DNA of 64,000 nucleotides from Myxococcales bacterium (GCA_047601445.1 JASGJH010000001.1:5568001-5632000); one strand, 5' to 3'; positions 14,723 to 34,392 are shown, counted from the stretch's first letter. The notes: a model not told the origin generated them from the sequence alone. A program made the numbers and translations.

Positions 14723-15043
14723 GAAAACCTCCTCTGCTGGAGCGAGGTCGCGAGTGCGTGCGACCCGATGCCCCTATAGGCAATCGCCGATCCAAAGCAG
14801 AAGAAACATCGAAAAATCGCGCAATTGGTAGAACCTCGGTCACGCAGACCGCACACTCACGCGCGGACCCGAGGCTAGGTCGAGCACACTTGCGCCGAGA
14901 GCAGGGCGGGTTCGCGCATGCGCGCGTGACAGATATGCATGTCGCGTTCTGCTGCGTGCTGACGGCGCTCTTGCGGCCTCTTTAACAGCGAGCTTGCTGC
15001 GCGCGCACGCACGCACCATCTCGACGTCGACGCCAGCAACCCC

Positions 15044-16093
15044 CTAAGGCGAGACCACCACGCGCAGCTCGCGAAAGCCCACGCCACCACGTGAGTCTCG
15101 CAACACCAGCCACAACTTGTGCTCACCCGCCTTGCTGGGCGCGGTCCACTCGTTGCTGGTGCTCTCGGCGCGCTCTTCCTCGGCCACACCGGTGCGCTCG
15201 TCCGCGTAGACGCCGGCCGTGGCGTACCAGGCGAGGCTCAGGCTCTCGTACCGCGACACCAGCGCGCCCGCCTGCACGTCGAGCCAGAGGTACTCCTCCT
15301 GCCCCGGGCAGCCGGGCGGGACTGGCTTCGCGCAATCGTCGGTGCAGCTGGCAGCGAGCTCGTGGATGCTGCAAATGCCATCGCCGCAGACGTCCTCTGC
15401 TTGGCTGGGGCAGTGTGCCCAGTGGGCGGCGAGCTCCAGCGTCTCGCCGGCTCTCACCTGAAGTACGTCTGCATCGCCCAACGAGGTCCGCTCGCCGCCT
15501 GCACGCTTGACGTCCACGTAGTCGACGCGCGGGTTCACGTTGCGACGGTAGCGCTGGTTAAACTCGCCCGATGTCTTCGGGTCCACGCCCGCCAGGCCGC
15601 AGTATAGGCGCTGCTCGTAGAGCACCGTCTTAGGTTGACCCTGATCGGGCACCACCCCCAGGATCACGGGCTGCTTGTAGCCGCCCGTGGCATCCGGATC
15701 TGCAGGTCGCCCGGGCGGGCTGTCACCCTCCGGCTTGGGGGGATTGGGACCAAACTGCGCGCAGGCCTGGGAGGGCATGGTGCCCTGCACCTCGAGCCCT
15801 TTGCCGATGCTCACGAGCTTGTCACCCGCGGCATCGAAGCACTCCCGACTGACCGGCCCAAGCTCGGCAGCGGGCTTGCGAGCTTCGCAGTGAAACCAGC
15901 TCAAGCGTCCGCCCGGCGTGCTGCCGTTCGACGTCACGAACAGGGACCGATAGGTCACCGCCTGCCCGGCGGCTGCCTCGGCGGGCTCCGCCTGGACCGC
16001 GAGCACGATGGGCCCCGTCACCGTGGCATCGTCGGTGTCGAGATCCGGGACGCAGCCCACGGCGAGGGCCGACAGCAGCACCGCTGCACGCAT
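15044..16093 (-). CDS. Cys-rich lipoprotein, partner of upstream TonB-dependent receptor
   Basis: MRAAVLLSALAVGC lipobox; VLAVQAEPAE; C-terminal LWLVLRDSRGG. Alternative start 16123. Confidence 0.85.
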   Translation of the reverse strand: MRAAVLLSALAVGCVPDLDTDDATVTGPIVLAVQAEPAEAAAGQAVTYRSLFVTSNGSTPGGRLSWFHCEARKPAAELGPVSRECFDAAGDKLVSIGKGLEVQGTMPSQACAQFGPNPPKPEGDSPPGRPADPDATGGYKQPVILGVVPDQGQPKTVLYEQRLYCGLAGVDPKTSGEFNQRYRRNVNPRVDYVDVKRAGGERTSLGDADVLQVRAGETLELAAHWAHCPSQAEDVCGDGICSIHELAASCTDDCAKPVPPGCPGQEEYLWLDVQAGALVSRYESLSLAWYATAGVYADERTGVAEEERAESTSNEWTAPSKAGEHKLWLVLRDSRGGVGFRELRVVVSP

Positions 16094-16110
16094 GGGTTGG
16101 CGCCGTCCGT

Positions 16111-18816
16111 TTAGAAAGTCCATTGCACACCTGCGACGGGAAGAATGGGCAAGCTCTGAATCTTGCCGCGACGCGTGAAATCGGGGCTGTACACGTACTC
16201 CTCGGTGTTCGCGCGGTTGGTGATGTTCTGAACCTCCAGATAGGCCTGTAGCTCGGAGGTCCCCAGCTTGAACGTTTGGCTGACGCGCACGTCGAGCTGC
16301 ATGAACATCGGGATGCGGATCCCATTGTGCTCGCCGAAGAAGGGCTGCTCTCGGTTGCGCAGAGCGTCGTAGTAGGTGCCGGTGACCTTCGTGCGCGGAT
16401 AGCCGCTGGCGACACGGAAGCGACCGCCGAGCTCGAAGCCCTTGAGCGGGGACCACACCAAGACGGTCGAGAGCACGTGGGTCTGGTCGTAGTCGAACAA
16501 GCGCCAGTCCGAGTTGTCGTCGTTCTTTCGCTCGCTGCGCATGATGGTGTAGGCGATCCAGCCGAAGAAGTGATCCGACATGTCCTTGCGGATCAGGGTC
16601 TGCAGACCCACCGTGCGCCCCTGCCCCGTGGGCAGGAGCGCCTGTGCCACGAGCGGCGAGGCCAGACCGTTGCGCATGGTGAGCTGGTCGAGGAAGGTGG
16701 CGAAACCGGTGAGCTCCACCGTGAGCTTCTCCAGAGGCTGCAGCGCGGCGCCAGCTACGAAGTGCCAGGCGCGCGAGGTCGGCAAGAGCGGGTTGCCGAA
16801 GGTGGACGAGAGATCGGCCGCGGCCGGCTGCTGATGATACAGACCGGCGGCCGTGTGCAGCGTGAGTCGCTCGAGCACGGCCCAGCGCAGCGCGAGGCGA
16901 GGCTCGGCCACGAAGTTCTGCTCGAACGCGCCCACCGGCGGGCTGTCGCCGATCACGGGCGTGCGCTTGCTGACGCTGCGGAAGTTCGGGTCGACGCGCA
17001 GGCCGGGGACGATGTGGAGTTTCTCTCCGAAGGGCGTGATGTCTGCCTCGGCGTAGGGCGCGATGCCCACGCGGGTGGTGGAGAAGTCATCGAAGCCGAT
17101 CTGATCGGGCGGCGGCTGTCCGAACACGCGAACGTCACCCTCACGAGGCGGCAAGCCGAGCGAACCGCGACGATCGATCTTGTAGTTGGCGACCTCTGCG
17201 TCGAGACCGCCCTCCAGACTGATCCAGGCGTTCAAGCGAATCGCGTGGCTCGCGCGCAGACCGACTACGTAGTCATCCGTCGACAACGACGTGACCGTGG
17301 CACCGTAGCTGCTCTTCTGGCTCTGGCTGCCGAAACCCACGTAAGGAGTGACCACCGTACGCGTACCGTTGCCGCGCTCGGCCACGTAGCGGGCGTACAG
17401 GCGATAAAAGGAGAGATCGCGCGCTTCGCGAGTGACCAACGACGGATCGGGGTTGGGCACGCCACGTGCGGTGTGATCGAGGCTCATCAGCCCTACCACC
17501 TCCACGCGCTGTCCATCGCCCAAGTCGCGAGCGATGCGGAGCTGGGCGTCGCGGTAGCGCGGAATCGGCACGAACTTGCCGACGTCGTCGTCGAGGCCCT
17601 TGGCGAGCTGATCGATCACGCTCACGCGGCCCGCAGCAGCCACGTCGGTCTGCTTGCCCAGGGAGGTGCTCATCATGGCCGAGGCGTCGAATACGTCGGC
17701 GGCCAAGAGCCCGTGCAGGCCCTGCTTGTCGGGGGTCTTGGTGTCGATGCGCACCAGACCGCCCAGGCCGCGACCATAGGCCGCGCCATAGCCACCCGGC
17801 ACCAGCTCGACCGAGCTGACCATGCTGGAGTGGACCGTCGAGCGCAGACCGCCCTCGTGGTAGAGGCGCGGAATGGGCACGCCGTCCACATAGGTGCGCG
17901 TGTCCTCGGGGCCTGCGCCCCACACCACCAGCTGACCCGAGCCCACGGCGGAGCGCGCCACGCCGGGCAGGTTCTCCACCACGCGCACCACGTCGCCTTG
18001 CGCGCCGGGAATGCTGCGGGCCTGCTCGGCGCTCACCTTGGTGGAAACCACCTCGCGTTTGAGCGCGGGAGGGGCCGTCACCAGGATCTCCATGTCGTCG
18101 CTCGGTCCCTGCTCGGCACCTGGCGGCGGCTGCAGCGCAACCTTGTAGGTCACGTCCAACTCTTCGCCCACCACCACCGTCTCCTCGGTCTGGAGTGGCG
18201 TGAGCCGCTCACCCGAGAGCGTGATCGGCAGCTTGCCTGGCGCGAGGTTTTCCAGGCGAAAGTGGCCCTTCTCGTCGGTGGTGACGCTCACGCCTCCGGG
18301 CAACTCCACCTTCACGTTCGGGAGCGGCTTCTTGGTGTCGGCATCGAGCACGGTGCCACTCAGCACACCGGTGGTCGGCACCACCTTCTCCTCACGCAGC
18401 GTGAACACATAGCGATACACGATGCGGATGGCCGCCGGCTTGCCGTCGATCTCCGCGGGCGAGAACTCGAAGGCCTGCACCGCCGCCAGCGCCGCGGCGT
18501 CGAAGGCCGCGCCGCCCGACTCCGTGACCTGCGCCTCGCCGACCTTGCCGAGCGCGTCGATCAAGATGGTGAGCGTCACGCCGACGTCGCCCGTGGGCTT
18601 GGGCTCCACCGTGGGATAGGGGGCTTCCACGAACTTCGTGAGCGCGGGAGGCTTGGTGAGCTTGGGGCCCTCCGGGGCCGGACCCGCCGTGCTCGGCGTG
18701 GACCCCTGCGCCGCCGCTTCGCTCGCGGTGCCCAGGCACAACGAGAGTAGGAGCAAGCTCAGGCGACGCAGCGACCTTGTTCGCGCGTGACTCGAATGAA
18801 AAAGAGTAAGACTCAT
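16111..18816 (-). CDS. TonB-dependent receptor with N-terminal TonB_C-like and carboxypeptidase-regulatory-like domains
   Basis: Signal peptide; YP...IDALGKV...FDAAALAAVQAFEFSPA (TonB_C); plug motif PGAQGDVVRVVENLPGV; beta-barrel with FDYDQTH and terminal F. ATG 18816 overlaps the tonB stop (ATGA). Confidence 0.92.
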   Translation of the reverse strand: MSLTLFHSSHARTRSLRRLSLLLLSLCLGTASEAAAQGSTPSTAGPAPEGPKLTKPPALTKFVEAPYPTVEPKPTGDVGVTLTILIDALGKVGEAQVTESGGAAFDAAALAAVQAFEFSPAEIDGKPAAIRIVYRYVFTLREEKVVPTTGVLSGTVLDADTKKPLPNVKVELPGGVSVTTDEKGHFRLENLAPGKLPITLSGERLTPLQTEETVVVGEELDVTYKVALQPPPGAEQGPSDDMEILVTAPPALKREVVSTKVSAEQARSIPGAQGDVVRVVENLPGVARSAVGSGQLVVWGAGPEDTRTYVDGVPIPRLYHEGGLRSTVHSSMVSSVELVPGGYGAAYGRGLGGLVRIDTKTPDKQGLHGLLAADVFDASAMMSTSLGKQTDVAAAGRVSVIDQLAKGLDDDVGKFVPIPRYRDAQLRIARDLGDGQRVEVVGLMSLDHTARGVPNPDPSLVTREARDLSFYRLYARYVAERGNGTRTVVTPYVGFGSQSQKSSYGATVTSLSTDDYVVGLRASHAIRLNAWISLEGGLDAEVANYKIDRRGSLGLPPREGDVRVFGQPPPDQIGFDDFSTTRVGIAPYAEADITPFGEKLHIVPGLRVDPNFRSVSKRTPVIGDSPPVGAFEQNFVAEPRLALRWAVLERLTLHTAAGLYHQQPAAADLSSTFGNPLLPTSRAWHFVAGAALQPLEKLTVELTGFATFLDQLTMRNGLASPLVAQALLPTGQGRTVGLQTLIRKDMSDHFFGWIAYTIMRSERKNDDNSDWRLFDYDQTHVLSTVLVWSPLKGFELGGRFRVASGYPRTKVTGTYYDALRNREQPFFGEHNGIRIPMFMQLDVRVSQTFKLGTSELQAYLEVQNITNRANTEEYVYSPDFTRRGKIQSLPILPVAGVQWTF

Positions 18817-19526
18817 AGCGTAAATCGGATGCTCACCACGAATGTCGATTCCACGGGCTTGCCGCACTGCTGCGCTGGCTCGAACGACGCGCCTTCCACG
18901 GCGCGCACGGCAGCTTCATCGAGTCCATGTCCCAGTCCTTCGAGCACCTTCACACTGCGGATCGCTCCGCTCGCGTCGACGGTGATCTCCACGCGCACCT
19001 TGCCCTCGATGCTGGCGGCACGCGCTTCCTCGGTGTATTCGGGCCGTCCCATCGAGAGCGGCTTCGGCTTCGTTGCGGGCTCCTCGCAGGTATCTTCCGC
19101 CACTTGCTTCTTGGCGGGTTCAACCAGACTCTTGGCCTGCGCCACGCGCTTCACGGGCTCCTTGGTTCCAGAGGTGCCCAATGAGTCTCCCACGGGCACG
19201 GCGACGCCACCGAGTCCCACACCGCCGGTCATGGCGATGCCGAACGTGGGCGCAGCGGCCGCCACGGGCGCGGGCGCGACCTCGGGCGGAGGCTCGGCAG
19301 ACTTGGCCTTGGGCGCGGCCTTCGCCTTCGGTTGGGCCACCGGTGGCGGTGGTGGAGGCGGTGGAGGAGGAGGCTCTTCCTTGGCCTTGGCCTTCTTGGG
19401 CGGCTGCACCACGGTGATGGCGATGCGCTCGGGCTCCTTGGTGGGCTCGATTTCGCGCACGCCCATGCCGAGCGTCGCATGCAACGCGAAGCTGACACCG
19501 TAGAGCACTGTCATGGAGGTACGCAT
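18813..19526 (-). CDS. tonB: Energy transducer TonB
   Basis: N-terminal anchor SFALH, Pro-rich linker, C-terminal YTEEARAASIEGKV...GLDEAAV...FEPA. Confidence 0.92.
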   Translation of the reverse strand: MRTSMTVLYGVSFALHATLGMGVREIEPTKEPERIAITVVQPPKKAKAKEEPPPPPPPPPPPVAQPKAKAAPKAKSAEPPPEVAPAPVAAAAPTFGIAMTGGVGLGGVAVPVGDSLGTSGTKEPVKRVAQAKSLVEPAKKQVAEDTCEEPATKPKPLSMGRPEYTEEARAASIEGKVRVEITVDASGAIRSVKVLEGLGHGLDEAAVRAVEGASFEPAQQCGKPVESTFVVSIRFTL

Positions 19527-19531
19527 GACGA

Positions 19532-19960
19532 TTACTGACCTTCGCGCTCCACCTGGACGGCGAACTTGGTGATGTTGTTGCTGCGCGCCAGGTCGAGCAC
19601 GTGCACCACGATGCCGTGCTGCGCGACCTTGTCTGCGCTCACGATCAGCGTGATGTCATCACCCTTCTTGCCTGCCGCCGCGAGCTTCTCCTTGAGTTGA
19701 GCCTCGGTGACGGGCTCCTCGTTGAAGAGCATCTCACCCTTGGGACCGATGGTAACCGCCGCCAGTGAGGCTGCACTGCCATCCGACGTGGCCGTATTCG
19801 GCAGATCGACCTTCATGCTCTGCGACACGATCCAGGTCGCCGAGACCATCAAGATCACCAGCAGCACCAGCACCACGTCCACCATCGGGGTCACGTTGAT
19901 GCCCACGATCATCCCGCCGCGTCCGCCGCGACCACCACCTGTACTCGTCGTTCCAGCCAT
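19532..19960 (-). CDS. exbD: Biopolymer transport protein ExbD/TolR
   Basis: INVTPMVDVVLVLLVILMV; ADK...HG.VV.VLD. Confidence 0.95.
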   Translation of the reverse strand: MAGTTSTGGGRGGRGGMIVGINVTPMVDVVLVLLVILMVSATWIVSQSMKVDLPNTATSDGSAASLAAVTIGPKGEMLFNEEPVTEAQLKEKLAAAGKKGDDITLIVSADKVAQHGIVVHVLDLARSNNITKFAVQVEREGQ

Positions 19961-19972
19961 GACGCGCCTCCT

Positions 19973-20692
19973 TCACTCGGCCGGGGCCAGAGCGCTCGTG
20001 CGCTCGGCGTCGGGAGATTCACTGTCGCTCGCGGACGCGAGCTGCGGCTCTTCGATATCCTTGGCCTCGGGGTGCGTGTGCAACCAGGCCGTCACCAGGC
20101 GCGCCAGCGACTGCGCGTGCCCCTCGATTTCGCCCGCCTTCTTTTGGACCACGTTGTAAGCGACCACCGCGGGGATGGCGACGAAGATACCCACGCCCGT
20201 GGCGATCAAGGCCTCTGCGATGCCGCCCATGACCTTGGCCATGCCCGCGCCCTGCGCGCTCGAGCCGAGGTGGCTGAAGGCCTCGATGACGCCGATGACG
20301 GTGCCAAACAACCCCACGAAAGGAGCGTTGTTGCCGAGCGTACCCAGCAGGTTCGTGCCGCGATCCAAATCCGTGCGAGCTCTTCCGAGCGCGCTCTCGA
20401 GCGCGTCGTTCACGGCCTCGGGTCCGCCCTTCTTCCACTCGAGCGCCTCGCGCAGGATGGACGCCTCCAACGACGGGCTCGCGTCGAGCGCGCGCTTGGC
20501 CGCGGCGTAGTCGTTGTTGCGCAGGGCCTTGCGAAGCGTCTCGTCGAGCGCCTTACCGGCGTTCTTGTTCTTGCGGAAGAACAGGAAGCGCTCGAGCATG
20601 GCGCCGATGGACACCACGCTGAGGAACAGGAGCAGGTACAGAACCCAGGTGGCTCCGAGCATCGCGATCTTGAGCAGGCTTTGGACGATCAT
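19973..20692 (-). CDS. exbB: MotA/TolQ/ExbB proton channel protein
   Basis: LGTLGNNAPFVGLFGTVIGVI...GIAEALIATGVGIFVAIPAV. Confidence 0.95.
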   Translation of the reverse strand: MIVQSLLKIAMLGATWVLYLLLFLSVVSIGAMLERFLFFRKNKNAGKALDETLRKALRNNDYAAAKRALDASPSLEASILREALEWKKGGPEAVNDALESALGRARTDLDRGTNLLGTLGNNAPFVGLFGTVIGVIEAFSHLGSSAQGAGMAKVMGGIAEALIATGVGIFVAIPAVVAYNVVQKKAGEIEGHAQSLARLVTAWLHTHPEAKDIEEPQLASASDSESPDAERTSALAPAE

Positions 20693-20751
20693 GGCATTAC
20701 CTCGACGATGAACTGGCTGTGCTGGCGGGGAGTCCCGCTCGCTTGCGGGAC

Positions 20752-23330: not shown

Positions 23331-23401
23331 TTACCGAAGAAAGGTTGATTGAACTCGTAGACTGCTATGCGTTGTCTGCTCGAACTACGCAAGCCACGAC
23401 T

Positions 23402-23438
23402 CGATGAAATATCGAGGCGTGGCCCGGGAATATCGCGG
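23402..23438. promoter_or_regulatory. Two degenerate CCGTGA-N4-TCACGG sites, 21 bp apart, upstream of the porin gene
   Basis: CGATGAAATATCGAGG (23402-23417) and CCCGGGAATATCGCGG (23423-23438), each 12/16 to CCGTGAAATATCACGG. Confidence 0.55.
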
Positions 23439-23451
23439 CTATTGGCGGCTA

Positions 23452-23784
23452 TTACAGCGCCGGCAACGACCCCGCTGGCAAGCGTGAAGCGTTGTCGAAC
23501 TTCACGCGTTGGATAGAAGACTTGAGTCCGCACTCGTTGTTGAGGAAGCCCTCACTCGTGGTCGGAGTCTGACAACCTTTCACTCCGCCGTCTGTTCCAG
23601 CGTCAGACGTGCTGCCACCGTCCACACCAGCATCGTTGTTGGCATCGCCATCGCCATCTCCAGGAGGTGGCGGAGGCTCTTCGGTGTCGTCGTTCTTGTC
23701 GCCACCGCAAGCAGCCGGAGCCAGCGCGAGCGCAGACAACAGAAGGAGCTGCCAAAACCGCATCGTAAGAGTACGCATGATCAC
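23452..23784 (-). CDS. Small lipoprotein
   Basis: PAAC lipobox, acidic DAG linker, two Cys, C-terminal FDNASRLP; overlaps the upstream stop. Exact Met uncertain. Confidence 0.8.
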   Translation of the reverse strand: MIMRTLTMRFWQLLLLSALALAPAACGGDKNDDTEEPPPPPGDGDGDANNDAGVDGGSTSDAGTDGGVKGCQTPTTSEGFLNNECGLKSSIQRVKFDNASRLPAGSLPAL

Positions 23785-25190
23785 TTCACCTCGCAGAAGC
23801 CGTAGCGGCAGTAGGGAGCCGTGGCCGGGCAGGTCGCATCGGCCGCCTCACCAGGAAGTTCATCGCCAGCCTGGTTCACGCAGGCTTGGCAGGAGTCGGA
23901 GTGCACACCGTTCTGCTTGTGATCCTCGAAGTAGCAGCCGCAGGAGACCTCGGGCTGGTAGCTCGCGAGCGGACCCACGTCACCGTCGCGCGTGACCTGC
24001 ATCGCGCAATCGGGGATGTTGCCGACGTCGATCTGAACGTCGAGGAAAGACTGGTTGTCGGGCAACTTGGTCTTGCCCGTGATGTACTCGACCCAACGCT
24101 TGGTGTTGGCGTCGACGATCTGACCGCTGGGACCGTCCAACTTCGCGTAGAAGTGGTGCGGGTTCCACAGGAAGTAGCGGCCCTGCCGCACGTTGATCTT
24201 GTCGAAGGAGGTGGTCGCGTCGGAGTCGGGCCAGTAAGCCCAGTTCTGACCCTTGGCCTGGAAGGCGAGACCCCTGACGTTTTCGCGCGCGATGTCGATG
24301 GTCTCCGTGCTCGCGAAGCCGAGCGAGTTCTCGGCGTTGCCGGCGCCCCCGGTGGCGGTCACGAACTTCACCATGTTGCCGTTGGTGGCGACGTCGTTGG
24401 GCCCCTTGGAGCCGTCGGCGGCGTAGGTGGGGTTCGGCGTACCGGTGCTGCCGTAGAGGGGATGCGTCAGCGGGATGCCCACGGCCTTGGCCAGGAGCAA
24501 GCCAGCCGCCGACGTGGTGCCGCGGCTACCGATGGCCGTGCCCACGGTCCACGGGGCGACCTGATAGGTCTCGGGGCCGAAGCCGTAGATGTAATAGGCT
24601 GCCTCGGCGCTGATCGCCTGCTGGGTCGAGTCCTTGTGGACGAACAGACTGAAGGCGCTGATCGGGCCAACGGTGTCGCTGATATCAGCCGGCAGTCCTG
24701 CCGCGTAGCCGTTGCAGGTGGTGGCCAGCTGGGCCATCGAGCCCCAGGTGGCGTACACGGGTGCGGCGTTCGCATCGAGCGTGCACTCCTGGCGCTTCAC
24801 GGAGCCGTCAGCTGCGTGGTACCAGTACTGAAGGCTGCCCGTGCTGAGCTTGGTGTGGGTCGCCGAGTCGAGCGAGTCGAGCGCCTTGCACGCGCCGTCC
24901 GACTTGTAGAAGACAATGAGCGGCTCGGAGCTCTTAAGAAGGTCGGCGGCCAAGCGGCCCACGAGCACGTTCGGCGCGCTGCCGCCACGACCCCAGATGC
25001 GGGGAGCGCTGGCAGCAATCTCGTCGGGAATGCCTGGGAGCGTTGCGGCTTGGCAATCGGGGGGGGGTGGAGTCTGCGCCTCAGCGGCGTCAGCCACCAA
25101 TAGGCCAGCACCCGTTAGAGCGCCGCCCAAAACCAGTGAGCGCCAGTCACGGCCCTCGCTGAACCTCAAGAATGAAAAGGACACGGTCAC
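23781..25190 (-). CDS. Secreted PstS-like / periplasmic-binding-fold protein with Cys-rich ends
   Basis: AGGAGG 8 nt before GTG 25190; signal peptide ending AEA-Q; IWGRGGSA, YKSDGAC, SRGTTSA and NVRQGRYFLW echo PstS-family motifs (GST, GSG, RxxxSG, G.YP); C-terminal CRYGFCE. The fold call is tentative. Confidence 0.65.
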   Translation of the reverse strand: MTVSFSFLRFSEGRDWRSLVLGGALTGAGLLVADAAEAQTPPPPDCQAATLPGIPDEIAASAPRIWGRGGSAPNVLVGRLAADLLKSSEPLIVFYKSDGACKALDSLDSATHTKLSTGSLQYWYHAADGSVKRQECTLDANAAPVYATWGSMAQLATTCNGYAAGLPADISDTVGPISAFSLFVHKDSTQQAISAEAAYYIYGFGPETYQVAPWTVGTAIGSRGTTSAAGLLLAKAVGIPLTHPLYGSTGTPNPTYAADGSKGPNDVATNGNMVKFVTATGGAGNAENSLGFASTETIDIARENVRGLAFQAKGQNWAYWPDSDATTSFDKINVRQGRYFLWNPHHFYAKLDGPSGQIVDANTKRWVEYITGKTKLPDNQSFLDVQIDVGNIPDCAMQVTRDGDVGPLASYQPEVSCGCYFEDHKQNGVHSDSCQACVNQAGDELPGEAADATCPATAPYCRYGFCEVK

Positions 25191-25252
25191 GAACACGACC
25201 TCCTGAATGTCGCCAGCCACCGCTCGAAAACGGTTCGCTGGCGAGCGCTCTT

Positions 25253-25268
25253 AGCGAGGTCCGTGCCA
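25253..25268 (-). promoter_or_regulatory. Sigma54 -24/-12 promoter for the PstS-like/porin/TonB operon
   Basis: Minus strand reads TGGCACGGACCTCGCT (GG-N10-GC with full TGGCAC), about 60 bp before the start codon. Confidence 0.75.
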
Positions 25269-25290
25269 TCGCGTAAACCGTCTGTATTTG

Positions 25291-25430
25291 CTGTGAAATC
25301 TTCCGTAACAAAGCGCGGGCCGTGATTTCTCCTGGGTACACCCCGTGAGGAGCCCGGATATTTGCAAGGTGGTCCGCTCCATTCATGGGTCGGCTTCTTC
25401 GCCGCGAGCCGTTCCCGTGATATTCCACGG
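25291..25430. promoter_or_regulatory. Cluster of CCGTGA-N4-TCACGG palindromic operator/UAS sites
   Basis: CCGTGATATTCCACGG (25415-25430, 15/16), CCGTGATTTCTCCTGG (25320-25335, 12/16), CTGTGAAATCTTCCGT (25291-25306, 11/16). Confidence 0.75.
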
Positions 25431-25436
25431 CGCTCG

Positions 25437-27269
25437 ATGTCGAAGTCCCCGTCGCCCCCTTCAGAAACGGCCTCCTTGATCCCGTCGCCGCTCGGCGAGG
25501 AGCGGACGCGTGGACGTGCTCAGGAGCCCCGGATCGAGCGGCTACTCCCGTTCGTGGGGACAGTCCGGAGCTACGCCGGCGAAAAGGCGAGACGCGATCT
25601 GATCGCGGGCCTCACGGTGGCTCTATTCGCCGTGCCTCAGGCCATGGCGTACGCGCTGATTGCCGGCTTTCCTCCGGCCTCTGGCATCGCCACCGCGGTG
25701 GCGGCCTCCATCCTCGGCGCGGCCTTCGGCAGCTCCGAGTTCCTGATCAACGGACCCACCAACGCCATCTCCGTGATGCTGGCCGCCAACGCGGCTCTGT
25801 TCGCCGCCCAGGGCGACGCCATCCGCGCCGTCGTATTGCTGACCTTCTTGATCGGAGCAGTGCAGCTCGGCGCTGGCCTCTTGAGGATCGGGACGTTCAC
25901 TCGCTTCGTGAGCGAGCCCGTACTCACCGGGTTCACCGCCGGCGCCGGCGTGTACATCGTGATCAACCAGCTGCCGGCCTTCTTGGGCATCAGCAAGTCC
26001 GCGATCGTCCGGGATCTGTGGGGCTTGACCCCACCCCACAGCGCGTTCTTCGACCTGCTGCTCCTCGGACGCTCCCTGAACAAAGTGCACTACGCCACGA
26101 CCGCGCTGGCCTTGTTGACGTTCGCCACCGTGCGCCTGCTGCAGTACTTCGAGCCGCGCATCGGACGTCGCTTGCCGGGGCCTTTCGTGGCCGTGGTGCT
26201 GACCACGCTGATCGTGTGGCTGCTCGGTCTCGACCATGACGGCGGCTTCGACCGTGTGAAGGTCGTGCGCGACATCGAGCCCCTCACGCGCCACGTGCCG
26301 ACGCTGGTCTGGCCGAAAATCGACTTCCCGACCGTGCGTTCCCTGGTGGGACCCGCCCTGGCGATCGGCCTGATGGGCTCCGTGGAGGCGATCGCCATCG
26401 GCAAGACTCTGGCCAACCGAGCGGGCCATCCCTTCGACGCGAGCAGACAGCTGCTGGGTGAGGCCTTCTGCAACCTCGGCGCGGCCTTCGTGGGAGGCTT
26501 TGCGTCCTCTGGCTCGTTCAGTCGTACCGCGGTGAACTACGAGGCGGGCGCCATGACCCGCGTCTCGTGCATTTTCTCGGGCGTCCTGGTGTTGGTGCTG
26601 GTGATCTTGTTCGCGCCGCAGGCCAACGTGATCCCGATCGCTGCCCTCGCGGGTACCCTGGTCCACATCGGCCTCAAGCTGGTGGACGTGGTTCGGCTCA
26701 AGCTCGTGTTCGGGACCACCGAGGGTGACCGCGTGGTGCTGCTCACCACGTTCCTGGGTGTGCTGTTTGCGGAGCACCTCGAGAACGCCCTGTTCGTGGG
26801 CATCGCGGTCTCCATTTACTACGCTCTGCGGCGCGCCGAGGGCTTCAAGCTGCGCGTGTTGCGGGAGGGCTCCGACGGCAGCCTGAGTGAGTTCGCGGAG
26901 GCGGACGCCGAAGAGCGCGTGATCGCCGTGCTCAACCTGCAGGGCGAGCTCTTCTTCGCGGCGGCCGAGGAGCTGCAGAACGAGCTCTTGCGCATGCTCG
27001 AGACGGGTCCGCGCGTGATCGTGCTGCGCATGCAGGAGGCTTACAACCTCGATGCCACCACGGCCCACGCCCTCGCCCTGGTGGCCGATCGGGCGCGCAA
27101 GCAGGGCGGTCGACTGATCCTGTGCGGCCTACGTCCGGGCATGTACGGCACCTTCGAACGCGCGGGCCTCGTCCCCGTCATCGGCGACGACGCCCTGTTC
27201 AAGGCCGAGCGCGAAATCCTCGCCTCCACCCGCCACGCCATGGAATATGCCCACAAGCTCGCACGCTAG
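25437..27269 (+). CDS. sulP: SulP family inorganic anion (sulfate) transporter with STAS domain
   Basis: DLIAGLTVALFAVPQAMAYA, INGPTNAIS, GSFSRTAVN; C-terminal GELFFAAA...LDAT STAS. Confidence 0.95.
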   Translation: MSKSPSPPSETASLIPSPLGEERTRGRAQEPRIERLLPFVGTVRSYAGEKARRDLIAGLTVALFAVPQAMAYALIAGFPPASGIATAVAASILGAAFGSSEFLINGPTNAISVMLAANAALFAAQGDAIRAVVLLTFLIGAVQLGAGLLRIGTFTRFVSEPVLTGFTAGAGVYIVINQLPAFLGISKSAIVRDLWGLTPPHSAFFDLLLLGRSLNKVHYATTALALLTFATVRLLQYFEPRIGRRLPGPFVAVVLTTLIVWLLGLDHDGGFDRVKVVRDIEPLTRHVPTLVWPKIDFPTVRSLVGPALAIGLMGSVEAIAIGKTLANRAGHPFDASRQLLGEAFCNLGAAFVGGFASSGSFSRTAVNYEAGAMTRVSCIFSGVLVLVLVILFAPQANVIPIAALAGTLVHIGLKLVDVVRLKLVFGTTEGDRVVLLTTFLGVLFAEHLENALFVGIAVSIYYALRRAEGFKLRVLREGSDGSLSEFAEADAEERVIAVLNLQGELFFAAAEELQNELLRMLETGPRVIVLRMQEAYNLDATTAHALALVADRARKQGGRLILCGLRPGMYGTFERAGLVPVIGDDALFKAEREILASTRHAMEYAHKLAR

Positions 27270-27274
27270 GCCCC

Positions 27275-28891
27275 TCACGCCTGCATGCGGCCGCGGAAGC
27301 GGTTCCACTCCACGCCCAGCTTCTTCATGCGGGAGCGCAGGGTGTGCGGGTTGATGTCGAGCAGGTCCGCCGCCCCGCCCTTGCCTTCGATGCGACCCTG
27401 GGTTTGTTCCAGAGCGCGCTCGATGTGCTTGGCCATGGCCTGATCCAGGGTGTCGAAGGCCTCGTTCACTGCCGAGGCAACCGGCACGTTCGCGACGAGT
27501 CCATTGCTCAAGCTGTGGATCGGAATGGCCGGCGCCAGTGCCACCGGCGAGGGGGGCGGCGTGCTCTGGCGCGGTGAGCCTCGCAAGCCGAGGGCCGCAG
27601 CCACGTTGAGCTTCTTGCCGCCACCGAGGATCGCCGCGCGCTCGATCACCGTGATGAACTCGCGCACGTTCCCGGGCCAGTCGTAGCCTATCAAGAGTTC
27701 CACATCGGCTTCGGTCGGCGCCAGTGGGGCGCCCCCCAGGCGCTTACCCGCCCGCCATGCGAAGTGCGCAGCCAGCGCGGGAATGTCGTTCAAGCGCTCC
27801 CGCAAGGGCGGCAGCACGATGGGAAACACACTCAAGCGATACCAGAGGTCCTCGCGGAACGTCCCCGCCGGGATCATGTCCTCCAGATTCCTGTGTGTGG
27901 CTGCCACCACGCGCACGTCCACGTGGATGGAGCGTGTGCCGCCCACGCGCTCGAACATGCGCTCCTGCAGCACGCGCAACAGACGCACCTGCGCATCGAG
28001 CGGCAGCTCACCCACCTCGTCGAGGAACAGCGTGCCGCCGTCGGCGCGCTCGAACCATCCCTTGCGCGTGCCTGAAGCACCCGTGAAGCTGCCGCGTTCG
28101 TGCCCGAACAGCTCCGAGTCCACGAGGCCCGGCGGAATCGCGCCGCAGTTCACGCACACGATGGGGCCCTTCGCACGCTCCGAGCGAGCATGGATGGCGC
28201 GGGCGACGACCTCTTTGCCAGTTCCGGTCTCCCCGAGCACCAACACGGGCACATCGGTGATGGCCACCTGCGCGATGCGCTCCGTAACCTCGCGCAGACC
28301 GCTGTCGCCGCCGACGATGGTCTCCACGATGTCCTGGCGCTCCAGGCGCGAACGCAGCGCCCGGTTGTCGGCCTCCACAGCCTCTCGCAGGCGAGCGAGC
28401 TCGTGGAAACGCCGATCGTTCTCGAGCGCCAAGCGGAAAGGCTCGAGCAGGCCCTGGGCCTTGCGCACGTGCACATCGTTGAAGCGCTCGTCCGCCACCA
28501 ACACCAGCACGCCCTGCGGGCCTTCTTCGTCGTTGAGGGGACCCACGATCAGATCGCCTCGCAGACCATTGGGCACGAGCGACGTCAGCAACGCGCTCGA
28601 GTGCGCCTGTCCGTGCAACGCACGGCCCTCGCGGCAGAAGGCGAGCACCGCCTCGAGCTGCGCATCGCTGTAGTCGTTGTGAGGGTGTTGCGGGAGCACC
28701 CGGGGATCACGAGCCTCCTCGGCCACGGTCTCCAGCTGCCGCCGACCCACGTCGAAGCGACGCACCAACACCGCGCCCAGCGGCAGCTCCTGTCGCAGGT
28801 GAGGAACCAGCTTCAGAAGGGCGCCGCCGATCTCGGGATGCCGGCAGATTTCACGCCATAGAGGTAAGGGAATGTCCACGCCATCCAGCAT
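27275..28891 (-). CDS. Sigma54-dependent enhancer-binding protein (FhlA-like: GAF-like sensor, AAA+, Fis HTH)
   Basis: [69 protein letters not shown]; no receiver domain. Confidence 0.95.
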
Positions 28892-28903
28892 ATGTCACAG
28901 CTT

Positions 28904-29050
28904 CCGTGATATTTCACCGTGATATTTCCTGGAAGAGCCATGAAATACCACTAGGCGGCGCAGGGCAGCAGAAAGCGTGCCGTGTGGATTACCCAGCAAA
29001 AGCCATGGGACCATTGAGATTTCACGGCCAATACCCATGAGCTTTCACGG
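28904..29050. promoter_or_regulatory. Five CCGTGA-N4-TCACGG sites between the activator gene and the sulfate operon
   Basis: 28904-28919 CCGTGATATTTCACCG, 28917-28932 CCGTGATATTTCCTGG, 28938-28953 CCATGAAATACCACTA, 29012-29027 CATTGAGATTTCACGG, 29035-29050 CCATGAGCTTTCACGG. Confidence 0.85.
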
Positions 29051-29051
29051 C

Positions 29052-29067
29052 TGGCTCGGTCTGTGCT
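29052..29067 (+). promoter_or_regulatory. Sigma54 -24/-12 promoter for porin-sbp-cysTWA
   Basis: TGGCTCGGTCTGTGCT, GG-N10-GC spacing, just upstream of the operon. Confidence 0.7.
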
Positions 29068-29095
29068 TTAGCGCGCACTCGTGAATACTTTCCCG

Positions 29096-30514
29096 ATGTT
29101 CTTTAGTAAATCACTCAAGTTCAGCTCTGTCCTCTCCTTTGCTTTCTTGTGTTTGGCCGCCCCCCTTCACGCCGAGGCCCAGGCCGCCCCGGCTAGCGCC
29201 GCGCCCGCACCTGAGGTGACCGAGGCCGCCCCTGCGCCCGTAGCGGCCCCTGCTCCGGGAGAGCCCGCCCTGCTCGCGGCTCCCGCTGCGCCCGCGGCTG
29301 CCCCCGAGAGCGCTCCTTCTAAGGATGCGCTCCTGGAGAAGGCCAAGTTGGAAGGCCCCACGGTGGTGGTGCAGCCCGGCCGAGGGCTCACGGTTACGAG
29401 CCTCGACGGCAAGAACTCGATCCAGATCCGCTCGCGCGTCCAGATCCGCGAGACCTATACCCACGACGAGCACGCGGATCCTCAGTACCAAAACACCAGC
29501 GAGCTGCAGATCCGCACGCTGCGCCTGTTCGTCACGGGTAGCGTCCTCGACAAGGACCTCAAGTACTTCATCCAGCTGGCCTTCGGTGCGAACGACTACG
29601 AGACGGGCTCGGCTTCCCCGATCTTCGACGCCTTCGTCGAGTACACGAAGCTGCGCGACGCCAACATCCGCCTCGGTCAATACTTCGTGCCCTTCGACCG
29701 CGCGCGGACCATCCGCGAGTTCGCGCTGCACTTCGTGGACCGCCAGCAGGTCGTACGCGAGCTCAACCTGGATCGCGATGTGGGCCTGATGTTCTCGTCG
29801 ATCGATCTCTTCGGCTGGGGCTCCCGCCTCGGTTACCACGTGTTCGTGGGCAGCGGCGACGGTCGCAACCGTGTGCTCGACAACAAGAACCCCTTCGGGT
29901 CGCAGCGCGCCAGCGTGCTCTCGGTGGGTCGCCTCATCTTCAAGCCCTTCGGGAACTTCGACGACTACGACCAGGAGGGCGACCTCTCGCGCAGCCCGAA
30001 GCTCAGGCTCGCGATTGCCGGAGCCGTTGGTTACAACTATCACACCGACCGCAGCAACAGCACCTTCGGCACCATCTACACCGCCGGCACGTTCAACTAC
30101 ACGCACACCGCTGCGGACATGGTGCTCAAGTGGAACGGCTTCTCGCTGATGACCGAGTACCTGCGGCGCGAGGCCAACAGGAACAAGGACACCCGCTTCG
30201 TCGATGGCAAGGAGACCACCCAGTACTCGCGCTCTGGCTGGGGCTACTTCGTGCAGGCCGGACAGATGCTCACGGACCGCCTGGAGGTGACCGCACGCTG
30301 GGACGACCTCTATGCCGACGTTGGCACGGATCCTGAAATGCGGCGCCTGGCTCGGCAGTTCGGCCGGCAGGTCGGCGGCGGCCTGAACTACTACATCAAC
30401 GGGCACTTCTTCAAGCTGCAGGCCGACTACTTCTGCATCCTCAGCCGGGCCGCTCCCGACAACGACCTCGAGCCGCGCCACGTCGTCCGCGCGCAGCTCG
30501 ACGCAATGTTCTGA
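29096..30514 (+). CDS. OprO/OprP family anion-selective porin, first gene of the sulfate operon
   Basis: Signal peptide; [35 protein letters not shown], terminal F. Alternative GTG start 29081. Confidence 0.9.
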
Positions 30515-30540
30515 ACCCTCTCACGGAAAAGAATCGGATC

Positions 30541-31632
30541 ATGACTGCCAAGATCGTATCGTTCTCGTCGCTCGCGCTCTTCACCTCGTTGCTGGTGAGC
30601 CTGACTGCCTGCGGCGGAAACAAGGAAGAAGCCAAACCCGCGGAGGGTTCCGCCCCGGCCCTCGAGGCCAAGCCCGAGAAGCCGAGCAGCGTGGAGCTGC
30701 TCAACGTGAGCTACGACCCCACGCGGGAGCTCTACGAAGAATTCAACAAGTCGTTTGCCGATAGCTGGAAGCAGAAGAGCGGACAGACCGTGACCGTGCG
30801 CCAGTCCCACGGCGGCAGCGGCAAGCAGGCGCGCGCCGTGATCGACGGCCTGGAGGCGGACGTGGTCACGCTTGCGCTGGCCTATGATATCGACGCGCTC
30901 TACGAGCAGGCCAAGCTCATTCCCCAGAACTGGCAGACCCGACTGGCCGACAAGAGCTCGCCTTATACGTCGACCATCGTGTTCGTGGTGCGCAAGGGGA
31001 ACCCCAAGGGCATCAAGGACTGGAGCGACCTGGTGAAGAAGGGCGTCGAAGTCATCACGCCCAACCCCAAGACCTCGGGCGGCGCGCGTTGGACCTACCT
31101 CGGGGCCTGGGGCTACTCGCTCAAGCAGCCCGGTGGCAGCGACACCACGGCCAAGGACTTCCTCAAGAAGCTCTACGCCAACGTGAAGGTACTCGACTCG
31201 GGCGCACGTGGCTCGACCACCACCTTCGTTCAGAACGGCATCGGTGACGTGCTGCTCTCCTGGGAGAACGAGGCGCAGCTGATCCTCAAGGAGTCCGGCG
31301 CGGACAAGTACGAAGTCATCACGCCATCGCTGAGCATCCTGGCCGAGCCTCCGGTAACCGTGGTCGACAAGAACGTGGACAAGCACGGCACACGAGAGGT
31401 TGCCACGGCCTACCTGCAGCATCTCTACACCGACGCGGGCCAGGAGCTCGCGGCCAAGCACCACTATCGCCCGCGCAACGCCGCGGTGGCCGCCAAGTAC
31501 GAGCAGGACTTCCCCAAGCTCCAGCTGTTCACGGTGGATGAGCTGTTCGGTGGCTGGCAGAACGCACAAAAGACCCACTTCGCGGACAACGGAACCTTCG
31601 ACCAGATCTACGTGCCCGGCGGTGGCGGGTGA
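30541..31632 (+). CDS. sbp: Sulfate ABC transporter substrate-binding protein (lipoprotein)
   Basis: [51 protein letters not shown] lipobox. Confidence 0.97.
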
Positions 31633-32525
31633 ACGAGGTGGTCGTCGAGCGTGTCCGAGCGACGCGGCGCTCCCTGGCGCCGCTCGCGCGCGTTTTGTGG
31701 AAGCCTCGCGTATTGCCGGGGCTCGCCCCGACGCTGGGGTTCACGCTCTTCTATCTCAGTGCGATGGTGCTGTTGCCCATCCTCGCGTTGTTGGCTCGCA
31801 CCACCTCGCTCACGTGGGCTCAGGTCCTGGCCATCGTCAGCGCCCCGCGCACCTTCGCGGCGCTGGCACTATCTTTCGGCGCCGCCCTGGCGGCTGCGCT
31901 GTTGAACACCGTGGTGGGCACGCTCGTGGCCTGGGTACTCGCGCGCTATCGCTTTCCGGGACGCACGTTGCTCGACGCCATCGTGGACCTGCCCTTTGCC
32001 TTGCCGACCTCGGTGGCGGGCATCGCGCTCACGTACGTGTACTCGCAGCACGGCTGGATCGGGTCCTACGCCGCCAAGATCGGGGTGCCCATCGCCTTCA
32101 CGCGCTTCGGCATCGTGGTGGCGCTCACCTTCGTGGGTATGCCCTTCGTCGTGCGCACGGTGCAGCCCGTGATGCAGGAGATCGACGCCCAGATCGAGGA
32201 GGCGGCCGCGTCGCTCGGGGCCACCAAGTTCCAGACCTTCTCGCGGGTGCTGCTGCCCTTGCTCGCGCCGGCCATCGGCACGGGCTTCGCGCTGTCCTTC
32301 GCGCGCGCGGTGGGCGAGTACGGCTCGGTGCTGTTCATCGCGGGCAACATGCCGATGCGCACCGAGATCGCGCCGCTGCTCATCGTCAGCAAGCTGGAGC
32401 AGTTCGACTATGCGGGGGCGGCCGTGATCGGTGCGTCCATGTTGGCCGTGGCGCTCGTGGTGCTGCTGACGGTGCAGTTCCTGGAGCGCTCCCTGGAGCG
32501 CAAGCTCGGTGGAGGTGAGTCGTGA
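31629..32525 (+). CDS. cysT: Sulfate ABC transporter permease CysT
   Basis: [48 protein letters not shown]. Confidence 0.96.
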
Positions 32526-33355
32526 CACAACGAGCTAGCCTGGTTCGCTCCGAGCGACCTGAAGGCGCGGGACTCGTGCTCTTGCTGTTGGCGGTGCTCT
32601 TGATGGGCCTGCTGGTGGTGGTGCCCCTGATCGCCGTCTTGAGCATGGCGTTCGCCAAGGGAATCTCCCCGTTCCTCGCGGCCATCTCGCACCCCGATGC
32701 GGTGGCCGCCATGAAGCTCACGGGCATCACCGCGCTGATCGCCGTGCCGCTCAACGCCGTGTTCGGCGTGGCGGCGGCATGGGCCATCACCAAGTTCGAG
32801 TTTCGCGGCAAGTCCCTGCTGATCTCGCTGATCGACCTGCCCTTCACCGTGTCGCCGGTGGTGGCAGGCCTGCTGTTCGTGCTGCTGTTCGGATCGCGCG
32901 GCTGGTTCGGTCCGTTCTTCATCGAGCACGACCTGCGCATCGTCTACGCGGTGCCAGGCGTGGTGCTTGCCACGGTCTTCGTCACCTTCCCCTTCATCGC
33001 GCGCGAGCTGATCCCGCTCATGCAGGCCCAGGGCAACGAAGAAGAGCTGGCGGCCGTCACGCTGGGTGCAGGCGGGTGGGACGTGTTCTTTCGCGTGACC
33101 CTGCCCAACATCAAGTGGGGCCTGGTCTACGGCGTGGTGGTGGCCACGGCACGCGCGCTGGGTGAGTTCGGCGCGGTGAGCGTGGTCTCGGGGCACATCC
33201 GCGGCCTCACCAACACGCTGCCTCTGCACGTGGAGATCCTCTACAACGAGTACGACCAAGTGGGCGCCTTCTCGGTGGCCTCGCTGTTGACCCTGGTTTC
33301 GGTGATCGCGCTGATCGTGAAGAAGCTGATCGAGAGAAAGAAAGAGTCCGTATGA
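32522..33355 (+). CDS. cysW: Sulfate ABC transporter permease CysW
   Basis: [55 protein letters not shown]. Confidence 0.96.
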
Positions 33356-34392
33356 GTATCGAAGTTCGCGACGTCAGCAAGAGCTGGGGCAAGGTCATGG
33401 GCCTCGACCGCGTGAACCTGCACGTGGACACGGGCGAGCTCGTGGCGTTGCTCGGCCCCTCGGGCTCGGGCAAGACCACCCTCTTGCGCATCATCGCCGG
33501 CCTGGAGACCGCCGACGCTGGCAGCGTCTTCTTCGCGGGCGAGGACGCCACCGAGTCGCGCGTGCGCGAGCGCGGCGTGGGCTTCGTTTTTCAGCACTAT
33601 GCGCTGTTCAAGCACATGACGGTGGCCGATAACGTGGCCTTCGGCTTGCGCGTGATGCCCAAGGACCGGCGCCCCAACGAGGCGCAGATCAAGGCCAAGG
33701 TAGATCAACTCATCTCGCTGGTGCAGCTGGAGGGCCTGAGCCAGCGCTTCCCCGGCCAGCTCTCGGGTGGTCAGCGGCAGCGCGTGGCGCTCGCGCGCGC
33801 CCTGGCCGTGGAGCCCAAGGTGCTCTTGCTCGACGAGCCCTTCGGCGCGCTCGACCAGCGCGTGCGCGAGGAGCTGCGGCGCCGCCTGCGCAGGCTGCAT
33901 GACGAGCTGCGCGTGACCACGGTGCTCGTGACCCATGACCAGGAGGAGGCCCTCGAGGTGGCCGACCGCGTGGTCGTGATGCACCACGGCCGCATCGAGC
34001 AAGCCGGTAGCCCGGTGGACATCCTCGACCGACCGCAGACCGCCTTCGTGAACGAGTTCGTTGGCGACGTGAACACGCTGCGCGGCGTGGTGGTGGACGG
34101 ACACGCGGAGATCGGGGCCCTGCGGATCCCCGCCGACGGCCACGCGCCGGGCGCGCAGGTGCGGGCCCTGGTGCGCACCTACGACCTCAAGATGTGGCGA
34201 GACGACGCCGGCATCGCGACGGTCAAGCACATGTCTGCGCTCGGCGACCGCGTGAAGGTGACGACCCACCTCGACGGTGCCGGCGAGCTCTTCGCGCAGT
34301 TCCCGCGCCGCAGCAGCCTGCTCAAGGGCGTGGAACCCGGCTGCAGGGTGGCCGTGGAGGTCACGCTGGCGAGGTTGTATCCCGAGGGATGA
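33352..34392 (+). CDS. cysA: Sulfate ABC transporter ATP-binding protein CysA
   Basis: [44 protein letters not shown]. Confidence 0.96.

Follow-up and report, generated by a model that had tools for sequence, protein, structure and literature searches.

A nine-gene operon of a Myxococcales bacterium (15044-25190, minus strand, as delimited by open reading frame (ORF) calls and domain searches) encodes a TonB-dependent outer-membrane system with a PstS-like protein, and lies near the genes of a sulfate importer, with genes for an anion permease and a sigma-54 activator between them. We consider it reasonably likely that these genes form one sulfur-acquisition regulon, which includes a TonB-powered outer-membrane anion-uptake module and is governed by a single shared activator; the nine-gene operon probably scavenges a sulfur compound rather than phosphate. 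The window, that is, the whole 64-kb stretch that was analysed, is G000:C1:5568001-5632000 of a 9.50-Mb genome (G000; 66.3% GC, single contig); relatives' genomes are labelled G0xx or G191, loci fetched from them Lxxx, and PBP denotes the binding-protein gene at 23781-25190 and its product. A first-pass annotation of the same DNA had proposed a shared regulon from a palindrome and two sigma-54 promoters. Each testable part of that proposal gains independent computational support, from conserved sites and promoters, from synteny across the phylum and from the loss of PstS ligand motifs; of the observation underlying it, the core sites and promoters stood, whereas a pair of palindromes at 23402-23438 did not hold up as sites.

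The palindrome had been described as CCGTGA-N4-TCACGG, with CCGTGATATTTCACGG as its best form, and the consensus obtained by iteration from the upstream regions of relatives is the same CCGTGATATTTCACGG. Two parts of the motif analysis are unbiased, namely a count of 7-mers and a genome scan that leaves G000 out. In the former, which covered 13 orthologous upstream regions from relatives, GATATTT was present in eight regions (404 times its genome frequency), CCGTGAT in eight and GTGATAT in seven, the top motif words being enriched 300-400-fold. For the latter, a matrix of 35 sites from relatives, without G000's own, was scanned over the whole 9.5-Mb genome, where ranks 1, 2 and 3 all fall in 28904-29050 or 25291-25430; these are the only matches of at least 20 bits, and the reversed genome has none. 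At 18 bits or more, five of eight matches lie in the regions described here (reversed genome, two), and at 16 bits or more, seven of 23 (reversed genome, six). Clusters of at least two sites within 120 bp number nine in the genome, three of them in the regions described here, vs zero in the reversed control; those at L028, L029, L030 and L032, located within coding sequence, were put down to chance. Within the window, matches of at least 15 bits are confined to the three places that had been named before. The earlier count of five sites at 28904-29050 was reproduced, three to four were found at 25291-25430 where three had been reported (25320, 25353 and 25415, plus a weak one at 25291), and the reported spacing of 21-23 bp recurs, with 28917/28938, 29012/29035 and 23402/23423 lying 21 or 23 bp apart.

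Sigma-54 promoters were recognised by the sequence TGGCACG-N4-TTGCW, in which ten bases separate the GG of the -24 element from the GC of the -12 element, and the three promoters at 29052 (+), 25268 (-) and 28982 (-) have one to two mismatches to this consensus (Table 1). Two of them, the GG-N10-GC elements at 29052-29067 (+) and 25253-25268 (-), had been predicted, and both are present at these positions and conserved in relatives: TGGCCCG-N4-xTGCTTA precedes the porin gene at all five loci that reach that far (L001, L003, L004, L005 and L006), and TGGCACG-N4-YYGCW precedes the PBP gene at all six orthologous loci. The third, at 28982 (-), is conserved in G007 and G004 (loci L002 and L005), and the activator orthologue of G022 is preceded by an analogous CGGCACGGTGCGTGCT. 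Because a sigma-54 promoter faces the activator gene in G000, G007, G004 and G022, autoregulation is plausible. Sigma-54 itself is encoded in G000 (rpoN; PF04552, 215.6 bits, above cut-off).

The positions of the sites relative to these promoters suggest how they might be used. Those at 28904-28953, which are conserved in L002 and L005, lie at about -167 to -133 from the 29052 promoter and inside the leader of the activator gene, and are a candidate upstream activating sequence for the 29052 promoter, just as the 29012/29035 pair is a candidate upstream activating sequence for the 28982 promoter. The interval 28904-29067 thus appears to hold two back-to-back promoters, where the sites beyond each can serve as the other's enhancer. 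Before the nine-gene operon, the sites at 25291, 25320, 25353 and 25415 stand at about -57, -86, -119 and -181 from the predicted start; that at 25291 is weak (13.3 bits, and only with a matrix that includes G000's own sites). Their positions are matched by sites in G007 and G004. The strongest of them, at 25415, ends 7 nt before the ATG of the divergent SulP gene in G000, G007 and G004, and could affect SulP expression.

The palindromes reported at 23402-23438 are present in G000, and that at 23402 overlaps a conserved hairpin between the 110-aa lipoprotein ORF and the porin-like gene. In the mRNA sense, this hairpin (23390-23426) has 14 pairs and a folding free energy of -25.9 kcal/mol (z -3.26; 0 of 200 shuffles as stable). 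G007 and G004 conserve it, one pair being compensatory among the three sequences; it has no U-tract and may serve in processing, stability or partial termination. No internal promoter was seen behind the 23402 sites. We therefore rejected 23402 and 23423 as activator sites, which are not kept in relatives, and regard 23390-23426 as an RNA element between cistrons, with an A/T loop that imitates the motif, an assignment that has moderate support from three sequences.

The gene at 27275-28891 encodes an enhancer-binding protein, as the first-pass annotation had it, with an AAA+ domain (PF00158, E 4e-70, residues 193-358), an AAA lid and a Fis-type helix-turn-helix (HTH) domain (HTH_8, E 1.7e-5, residues 488-525). 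The GAFTGA loop is the sigma-54 contact motif of such proteins, and in translation the activator reads GSFTGA, a variant of it. Residues 1 to about 140 form a GAF-like sensor, followed by a coiled linker; a model of the first 190 residues, made from 30 sequences, has a mean predicted local distance difference test score (pLDDT) of 88.8 and consists of a GAF domain and a long helix. Among solved structures it matches 3k2n best (E 1.4e-6), which is a GAF domain from a sigma-54 regulator. No NCBIfam equivalog reached its cut-off with this protein, the best being NifA with 332 vs 529 bits.

The link between this activator and sulfate import extends over the phylum. In a survey of 401 sampled genomes, homologues of the activator's N-terminal domain were present in 33, and 20 homologue loci were fetched. 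At 16 of the 20, sbp and cysT, cysW or cysA lie beside the activator gene, either divergent from it or directly upstream on the same strand; a 17th has an sbp-like gene only, and the other three, one of them cut by a contig end, are without sbp or cysTWA. In the seven divergent loci, a porin-like gene is preceded by a sigma-54 promoter and, further upstream, by CCGT(C/G)A...ACGG repeats. Exact CCGT-N8-ACGG with an A/T-rich core occurs six times in the 110 kb of these seven loci, five times within the 170 bp adjoining the activator gene; the degenerate form (up to two mismatches) is common background, at 1.7 per 170 bp, and was set aside as not specific. Since both the adjacency to sbp-cysTWA and the repeats recur across the phylum, the link between the activator family and sulfate import is old and conserved.

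The nine-gene module is likewise conserved. The full operon and the divergent SulP gene are kept in G007 and G004 (the 110-aa ORF was not detected in G004), and a profile of the operon's first protein finds the PBP family in 35 of the 401 sampled genomes. At 11 of 20 fetched PBP loci the order is PBP, porin-like protein, lipoprotein, ExbB, ExbD, TonB and receptor, and a terminal lipoprotein follows in ten of these 11, the stretch of L142 ending before that point; in three of the 20 the module is shortened and lacks ExbBD-TonB. A sigma-54-like promoter lies no more than 600 bp upstream of the PBP gene at eight of the 20 distant loci, vs about 0.03 expected per locus. In two lineages, G006 and G191, the TonB operon is physically joined to the activator and sbp-cysTW(A). 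In G006 a single cluster, which has no SulP gene, comprises the PBP operon, the activator gene and porin-sbp-cysTW; at G006:C152 (L035 2000-3190) there is a gap between ExbB and the C-terminal end of the receptor, which could stem from a deletion or be an artefact of the assembly. The genes of G191 run sbp-cysT-cysW-cysA-activator-PBP-...-receptor-lipoprotein, all on one strand. Its activator orthologue (L129 8591-9589; 332 aa), after cysA, has AAA+ and HTH domains and no GAF domain, and its HTH is close to that of the window activator. The sbp promoter of G191 is of a textbook sigma-70-like form (TTGACC-17-TATAGT), and its PBP gene has TGGCACGGCAGTTGCA with CCGCGATGCTTCCTGG and CCGTGACGGGCCACGG upstream, read by eye and below the matrix threshold, which suggests a two-step regulatory cascade in this lineage.

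The first product of the operon is a protein with a PstS-like fold whose ligand residues have changed. Its AlphaFold2 model (pLDDT 94.7) has PstS 4lat as its best Foldseek match (E 1e-11, TM score 0.79 on the target), with ModA lower, and a weak profile match to 1twy (E 6e-4); identity to PstS is 9-13%. It has about ten conserved cysteines and no lipobox. The family alignment shows TGS(T/S)AA, G-SC, G-x-S-D-V and R-xxx-SGT to be intact in the distant paralogues, and some of these classical paralogues are annotated as phosphate-binding and carry PF12849. The group of the window PBP has GGSA, G-AC, WG(S/A)MAQ and R-xTT-SAAG instead, so that the hydroxyl ligands and the Asp that accepts the phosphate proton are gone, and the Arg and one Ser stay. 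The residue equivalence between PBP and PstS rests on sequence alignment (motif likeness and the 1twy profile match) and not on superposed structures, and phmmer with a classical paralogue against PDB sequences returned no PstS match. The motifs of the classical paralogues agree with the ligands of E. coli PstS, which are T10, S38, D56, R135 and S139-T141, and the changed motifs presumably correspond to S38, D56, G140 and T141. The G191-type PBPs, also linked to cysTWA, have the same losses (GGSA, G-AC, FGAMG, TSAAT).

The genome context of the paralogues points the same way. Genes pstC and pstA are outside this locus, at 8.92 Mb and 2.36 Mb, and the canonical PstS adjoins them there. A paralogous module at 5.846-5.852 Mb of G000 encodes PBP-like and porin-like proteins, a receptor that bears a plug and, at its end, a lipoprotein; it is divergent from modA (203 bits vs a cut-off of 62.5), modB (213 vs 183) and modC, and its PBP paralogue has a third, different ligand-motif signature. 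This modABC-linked module lies outside the window (L096 5564-15707 = G000:C1:5845563-5855706), and a third PBP paralogue at 3.82 Mb has an uninformative gene context. The first-pass view that a phosphate-like operon may not serve phosphate is thus supported by both the lost PstS ligand motifs and the paralogous module beside modABC. We conclude that the module appears to be an outer-membrane anion-uptake device that comes in several specificities, with the window copy as the sulfur one. A wider proposal, which we put forward tentatively and regard as possible but rather doubtful, is that of a Myxococcota family of TonB-powered, binding-protein-assisted oxyanion importers, each built from a PstS-fold protein, a porin-like barrel, lipoproteins and a receptor, with sulfate, molybdate and phosphate types distinguished by the ligand motifs of the binding protein and the sulfur type placed under a dedicated GAF sigma-54 activator in the role that CysB has in proteobacteria.

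In the mechanism that we propose, the GAF-AAA+-HTH protein would act as a one-component activator that binds 16-bp sites of consensus CCGTGATATTTCACGG and switches on three sigma-54 promoters, those at 29052 (+), at 28982 (-) before its own gene and at 25268 (-) before the nine-gene operon, with the GAF domain presumably sensing a metabolite that reflects sulfur status. The operon would supply a receptor energised by TonB-ExbBD, together with three lipoproteins, a porin-like barrel and a soluble, Cys-rich protein of PstS fold, which most likely captures a sulfur oxyanion or other sulfur compound and may act as a periplasmic shuttle or as an exported scavenger. Entry of the substrate into the cell, be it sulfate, thiosulfate or an organosulfur anion, would then proceed via CysTWA or SulP.

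The activator may have further targets in the genome. A sigma-54-like promoter with at least one site within 280 bp upstream was found in 18 cases vs about eight expected, and the two-site cases outside the window are an SrpI operon, a 1-Cys peroxiredoxin and a DUF2325 gene. The SrpI operon (L027 3211-6036; G000:C1:3964071-3966896), which comprises a small ORF with CxxC as well as genes for an SrpI-type 2A encapsulin and a cysteine desulfurase, lies behind a cysE-like gene and has a sigma-54 promoter and two weak motif sites upstream; as far as the available text of PMC8049743 goes, SrpI is induced by sulfate starvation in Synechococcus. LsfA, of the 1-Cys peroxiredoxin type, is strongly induced by sulfur starvation in Pseudomonas aeruginosa, according to the accessible part of PMC12581299. 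The DUF2325 gene, downstream of ilvD (L026 3091-3492; G000:C1:4862037-4862438), is preceded by two motif sites, 100-130 bp upstream, and by a sigma-54 promoter close to consensus, TGGCACGTCCTCTGCT. Conservation is weak, and we treat these targets as leads, not findings.

Several results weigh against a sulfur regulon of this composition. The window-wide count of the motif is not significant: with up to two mismatches there are ten matches vs 5.6 expected, and seven of 100 shuffles reach ten, although six of the ten fall within 25320-25430 and 28904-29050, two stretches of about 150 bp. The matrix was seeded with the consensus of the first-pass annotation, which makes the site lists of relatives partly circular. 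SulP has no sigma-54-like promoter on the plus strand even at five mismatches, and the 23402/23423 sites have no counterparts of at least 13 bits in G007 or G004. In the fragmented assembly of G006, tblastn found no ExbD, no TonB and not most of the receptor. Among the nine genes of the operon there is no sulfatase, monooxygenase or inner-membrane transporter, and Arg192 and Ser196 of the PstS anion loop are invariant in the PBP, which means that its ligand may be phosphate-like. As to the additional targets, SrpI has a sigma-54-like promoter in G003, where a contig end truncates the upstream region, a single 22-bit site in G005 and neither in G037; the peroxiredoxin promoter and sites are found at none of nine relatives' loci, orthologues of 86-87% included.

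How far such points favour other explanations differs from case to case. It is very improbable that the two intergenic regions resemble each other by chance or because two different regulators are at work: the sites are degenerate, the whole 64-kb window has no exact copy of CCGTGA-N4-TCACGG or of CCGTGATATTTCACGG, and the window-wide count is what chance could give, but the three top matches of the genome fall here with an independent matrix, the site positions are conserved in G007 and G004, and so is the synteny with the activator. An activator that senses a non-sulfur signal, such as redox or oxidative stress or general starvation, with the sulfate genes as one output, would fit the peroxiredoxin and DUF2325 genes among the candidate extra targets; we think it improbable, given that adjacency to sbp-cysTWA is the feature conserved over the phylum (16 of 20 loci) and that the peroxiredoxin link is not conserved.

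Other readings accept the activator and differ on what the module does. If it imported a non-sulfur anion (phosphate, molybdate, tungstate or selenate) or were a general anion scavenger induced along with sulfate uptake, this would accord with the nearest solved folds, which are phosphate-binding proteins with ModA lower, with the invariant Arg192 and Ser196, with some relatives being annotated as phosphate-binding and with the paralogous module beside modABC; we nonetheless hold it to be unlikely, as the four PstS ligand motifs lost here are kept in classical paralogues, pstC and pstA are elsewhere in the genome, the molybdate-linked paralogue has a different motif signature, and linkage of the module to sbp-cysTWA is seen in G006 and G191, that to SulP in three genomes. 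The receptor could also be turned outward, exporting the PstS-like protein or lipoproteins to the medium or the cell surface under sulfur limitation, with uptake left to the porins. It has a CarboxypepD_reg domain and an N-terminal likeness to MxcH, and Oar, we assume, shares the CarboxypepD_reg extension. Oar is a precedent for protein export, being required for PopC secretion (PMC6434023, in the text available), and ModA is secreted in P. aeruginosa (PMC11734730, accessible part); the PBP has roughly ten conserved cysteines and no lipobox. Most TonB-dependent receptors import, however, and the module's own TonB-ExbBD set fits either direction, so that an outward receptor has, in our estimate, a low probability. 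A sulfur-acquisition regulon with an importing module remains the reading that we favour.

The features on which these arguments draw are listed in Table 1.

Table 1. Genes, promoters and candidate regulatory elements of the locus (window positions).
Feature	Position	Strand	Basis or remark
Cys-rich lipoprotein, operon's last gene	15044..16456	-	kept at module's end in relatives
TonB-dependent receptor	16111..18867	-	plug PF07715 E 6e-9, barrel PF00593 E 3e-13
TonB	18813..19526	-	TonB_C E 2e-19
ExbD	19532..19960	-	PF02472 E 1.5e-28
ExbB	19973..20692	-	PF01618 E 7e-33
Lipoprotein, 312 aa	20752..21690	-	family mainly in Myxococcota
Porin-like outer-membrane protein, 546 aa	21690..23330	-	sequence architecture
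Intercistronic hairpin, contains the 23402 'site'	23390..23426	-	folding and conservation
Small lipoprotein-like ORF, 110 aa	23452..23784	-	orthologue in G007
Secreted or periplasmic Cys-rich protein, PstS-like fold (PBP), operon gene 1	23781..25190	-	AlphaFold2 and Foldseek
Sigma-54 promoter of nine-gene operon, TGGCACGGACCTCGCT	25253..25268	-	conserved in relatives
Candidate activator sites 25320, 25353, 25415	25291..25430	.	15.9, 14.8, 20.6 bits, relatives-only matrix
SulP/STAS anion permease	25437..27269	+	PF00916 E 7e-77 and STAS; divergent from nine-gene operon
Sigma-54 enhancer-binding protein, 538 aa	27275..28891	-	PF00158, HTH_8, GAF fold
Candidate activator sites 28904, 28917, 28938	28904..28953	.	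22.8, 23.1, 16.1 bits, relatives-only matrix
Sigma-54 promoter facing activator gene, CGGCACGCTTTCTGCT	28967..28982	-	third promoter, absent from first-pass annotation
Candidate activator sites 29012, 29035	29012..29050	.	23 bp apart; 17.9, 18.7 bits
Sigma-54 promoter of porin-sbp-cysTWA, TGGCTCGGTCTGTGCT	29052..29067	+	conserved in relatives
Probable OprO/OprP-family anion porin	29081..30514	+	likely start ATG 29096; homologue-based
sbp, cysT, cysW, cysA (sulfate/thiosulfate ATP-binding cassette (ABC) importer)	30541..34392	+	NCBIfam

Some gene assignments need further comment. The PBP gene, whose product has no Pfam match, is open to 25220 (a 479-aa frame), and we place its start at GTG 25190 after AGGAGG from the conserved CAGGAGGTCGTGTTCGTGAC; the likely start of the last gene of the operon is internal (MRAAVLLSALAVGC). 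The 546-aa protein also has no Pfam match and is judged porin-like from its signal peptide, Ala/Pro linker, coiled coil and barrel with terminal F; its gene is conserved as part of the module over the whole phylum. For the 312-aa and 470-aa lipoproteins, the database gave nameless clusters, with Myxococcota as the most frequent phylum, and a weak pointer to DUF2135. The N-terminal extension of the receptor consists of TonB_C and CarboxypepD_reg. SulP, with a likely ATG at 25437, lies between the two operons and had been overlooked in the first-pass annotation. The porin at 29081-30514 has no PF07396 match up to E 10, only a weak OMP_b-brl hit (E 0.14), and no significant similarity to the porin-like protein of the nine-gene operon; PF07396 is found in many of its homologues (50-60% identity), whose names are porin or phosphate-selective porin, and on this ground we judge it to be probably of the OprO/OprP family. 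All four importer genes exceed their NCBIfam cut-offs (sbp 507 > 288 bits, CysT 369 > 246, CysW 384 > 329, CysA subfamily 379 > 343). Rfam returned no family for 14500-35000 at E up to 0.1, and a scan of 14700-34600 for the sigma-70 consensus found no promoter, a result that is uninformative at 66% GC. Elsewhere in the window are a second receptor built of TonB_C, CarboxypepD_reg, plug and barrel (42221-44968, plus strand) and, at the left end, a 2690-aa open frame (217-8289, minus strand).

Compared with known systems, the window combines familiar parts in a different arrangement. CysB is a LysR-type activator of sigma-70 promoters, and SfnR-type regulators, which have no N-terminal sensor domain, are expressed under CysB; the cascade suggested for G191 presumably resembles CysB acting on SfnR. 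In Pseudomonas putida and P. aeruginosa, SfnR is a sigma-54 activator of sulfur scavenging in sulfate starvation (PMC8234197, as far as its available text goes). Like SfnR, the window activator is a sigma-54 enhancer-binding protein tied to sulfur genes, and its G191 orthologue, which is encoded behind cysA, is like SfnR in having no sensor domain. In contrast to SfnR, which acts on organosulfur monooxygenases and is itself under CysB, the window activator has a GAF sensor, its likely targets are a sulfate ABC importer with a porin and a TonB module, and its lineage, going by the taxon names of homologues, is Myxococcota, probably Polyangia. The output genes sbp and cysTWA are the same as in the CysB regulon of enterobacteria and pseudomonads, whereas the promoters are of the -24/-12 type and the regulator is an AAA+ activator. 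The GAF-AAA+-HTH build is that of NifA, FhlA and NorR, with NifA and NorR giving the best NCBIfam scores, but these are below the equivalog cut-offs, and the gene context and DNA motif differ.

Similar considerations apply to the transport proteins. The PBP shares with PstS its fold and the Arg and Ser of the R-x-x-x-S loop; unlike PstS, it has four changed ligand motifs, including the S-D dyad, extra Cys-rich parts and a gene in a TonB operon with no pstCAB partner genes. The porin at 29081-30514 is like OprP and OprO in that its homologues carry PF07396, and unlike them in its place in a sulfate operon and in its long Ala/Pro and coiled-coil N-terminus. As in Oar and MxcH of Myxococcus, a CarboxypepD_reg extension precedes the plug and barrel of the receptor, but the substrates of MxcH (a siderophore) and Oar (exported PopC) are different, and the window module combines a PstS-fold protein with sulfur-linked regulation. 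The ModA that P. aeruginosa secretes passes molybdate on to a protein of the outer membrane (PMC11734730, available part); the pairing of an oxyanion-binding fold with an outer-membrane partner is similar to this ModA/IcmP system, which depends on type VI secretion, and the same part of that paper describes no TonB operon of the present build.

Sigma-54-controlled sulfur scavenging (SfnR), GAF-AAA+-HTH activators, TonB modules and OprP porins are already known. In a literature search that mostly did not reach subscription journals, we found no report of a sigma-54 activator as a conserved regulator of sbp-cysTWA, of a TonB module with a PstS-fold protein tied to sulfur, or of TonB-dependent uptake of sulfate or molybdate, and the word 'sulfate' is absent from the available text of a 2025 survey of sigma-54 regulons (PMC12316311). 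Sulfur regulation beyond proteobacteria and firmicutes is poorly known, and here a whole phylum seems to use sigma-54 and a GAF activator for its sulfate importer. The locus provides a motif that can be put to the test, three promoters, and a sensor domain with a ligand that could be identified, as well as a first functional handle on a conserved eight-to-nine-gene TonB module present in 35 of 401 sampled genomes, the binding protein of which is liable to be annotated as phosphate-binding. If the proposal is true, it would caution against reading PstS- or OprP-like names as phosphate metabolism, and import of a sulfur oxyanion would widen the substrate range of TonB-dependent transport, with active, TonB-driven transport of sulfate or thiosulfate across the outer membrane being new.

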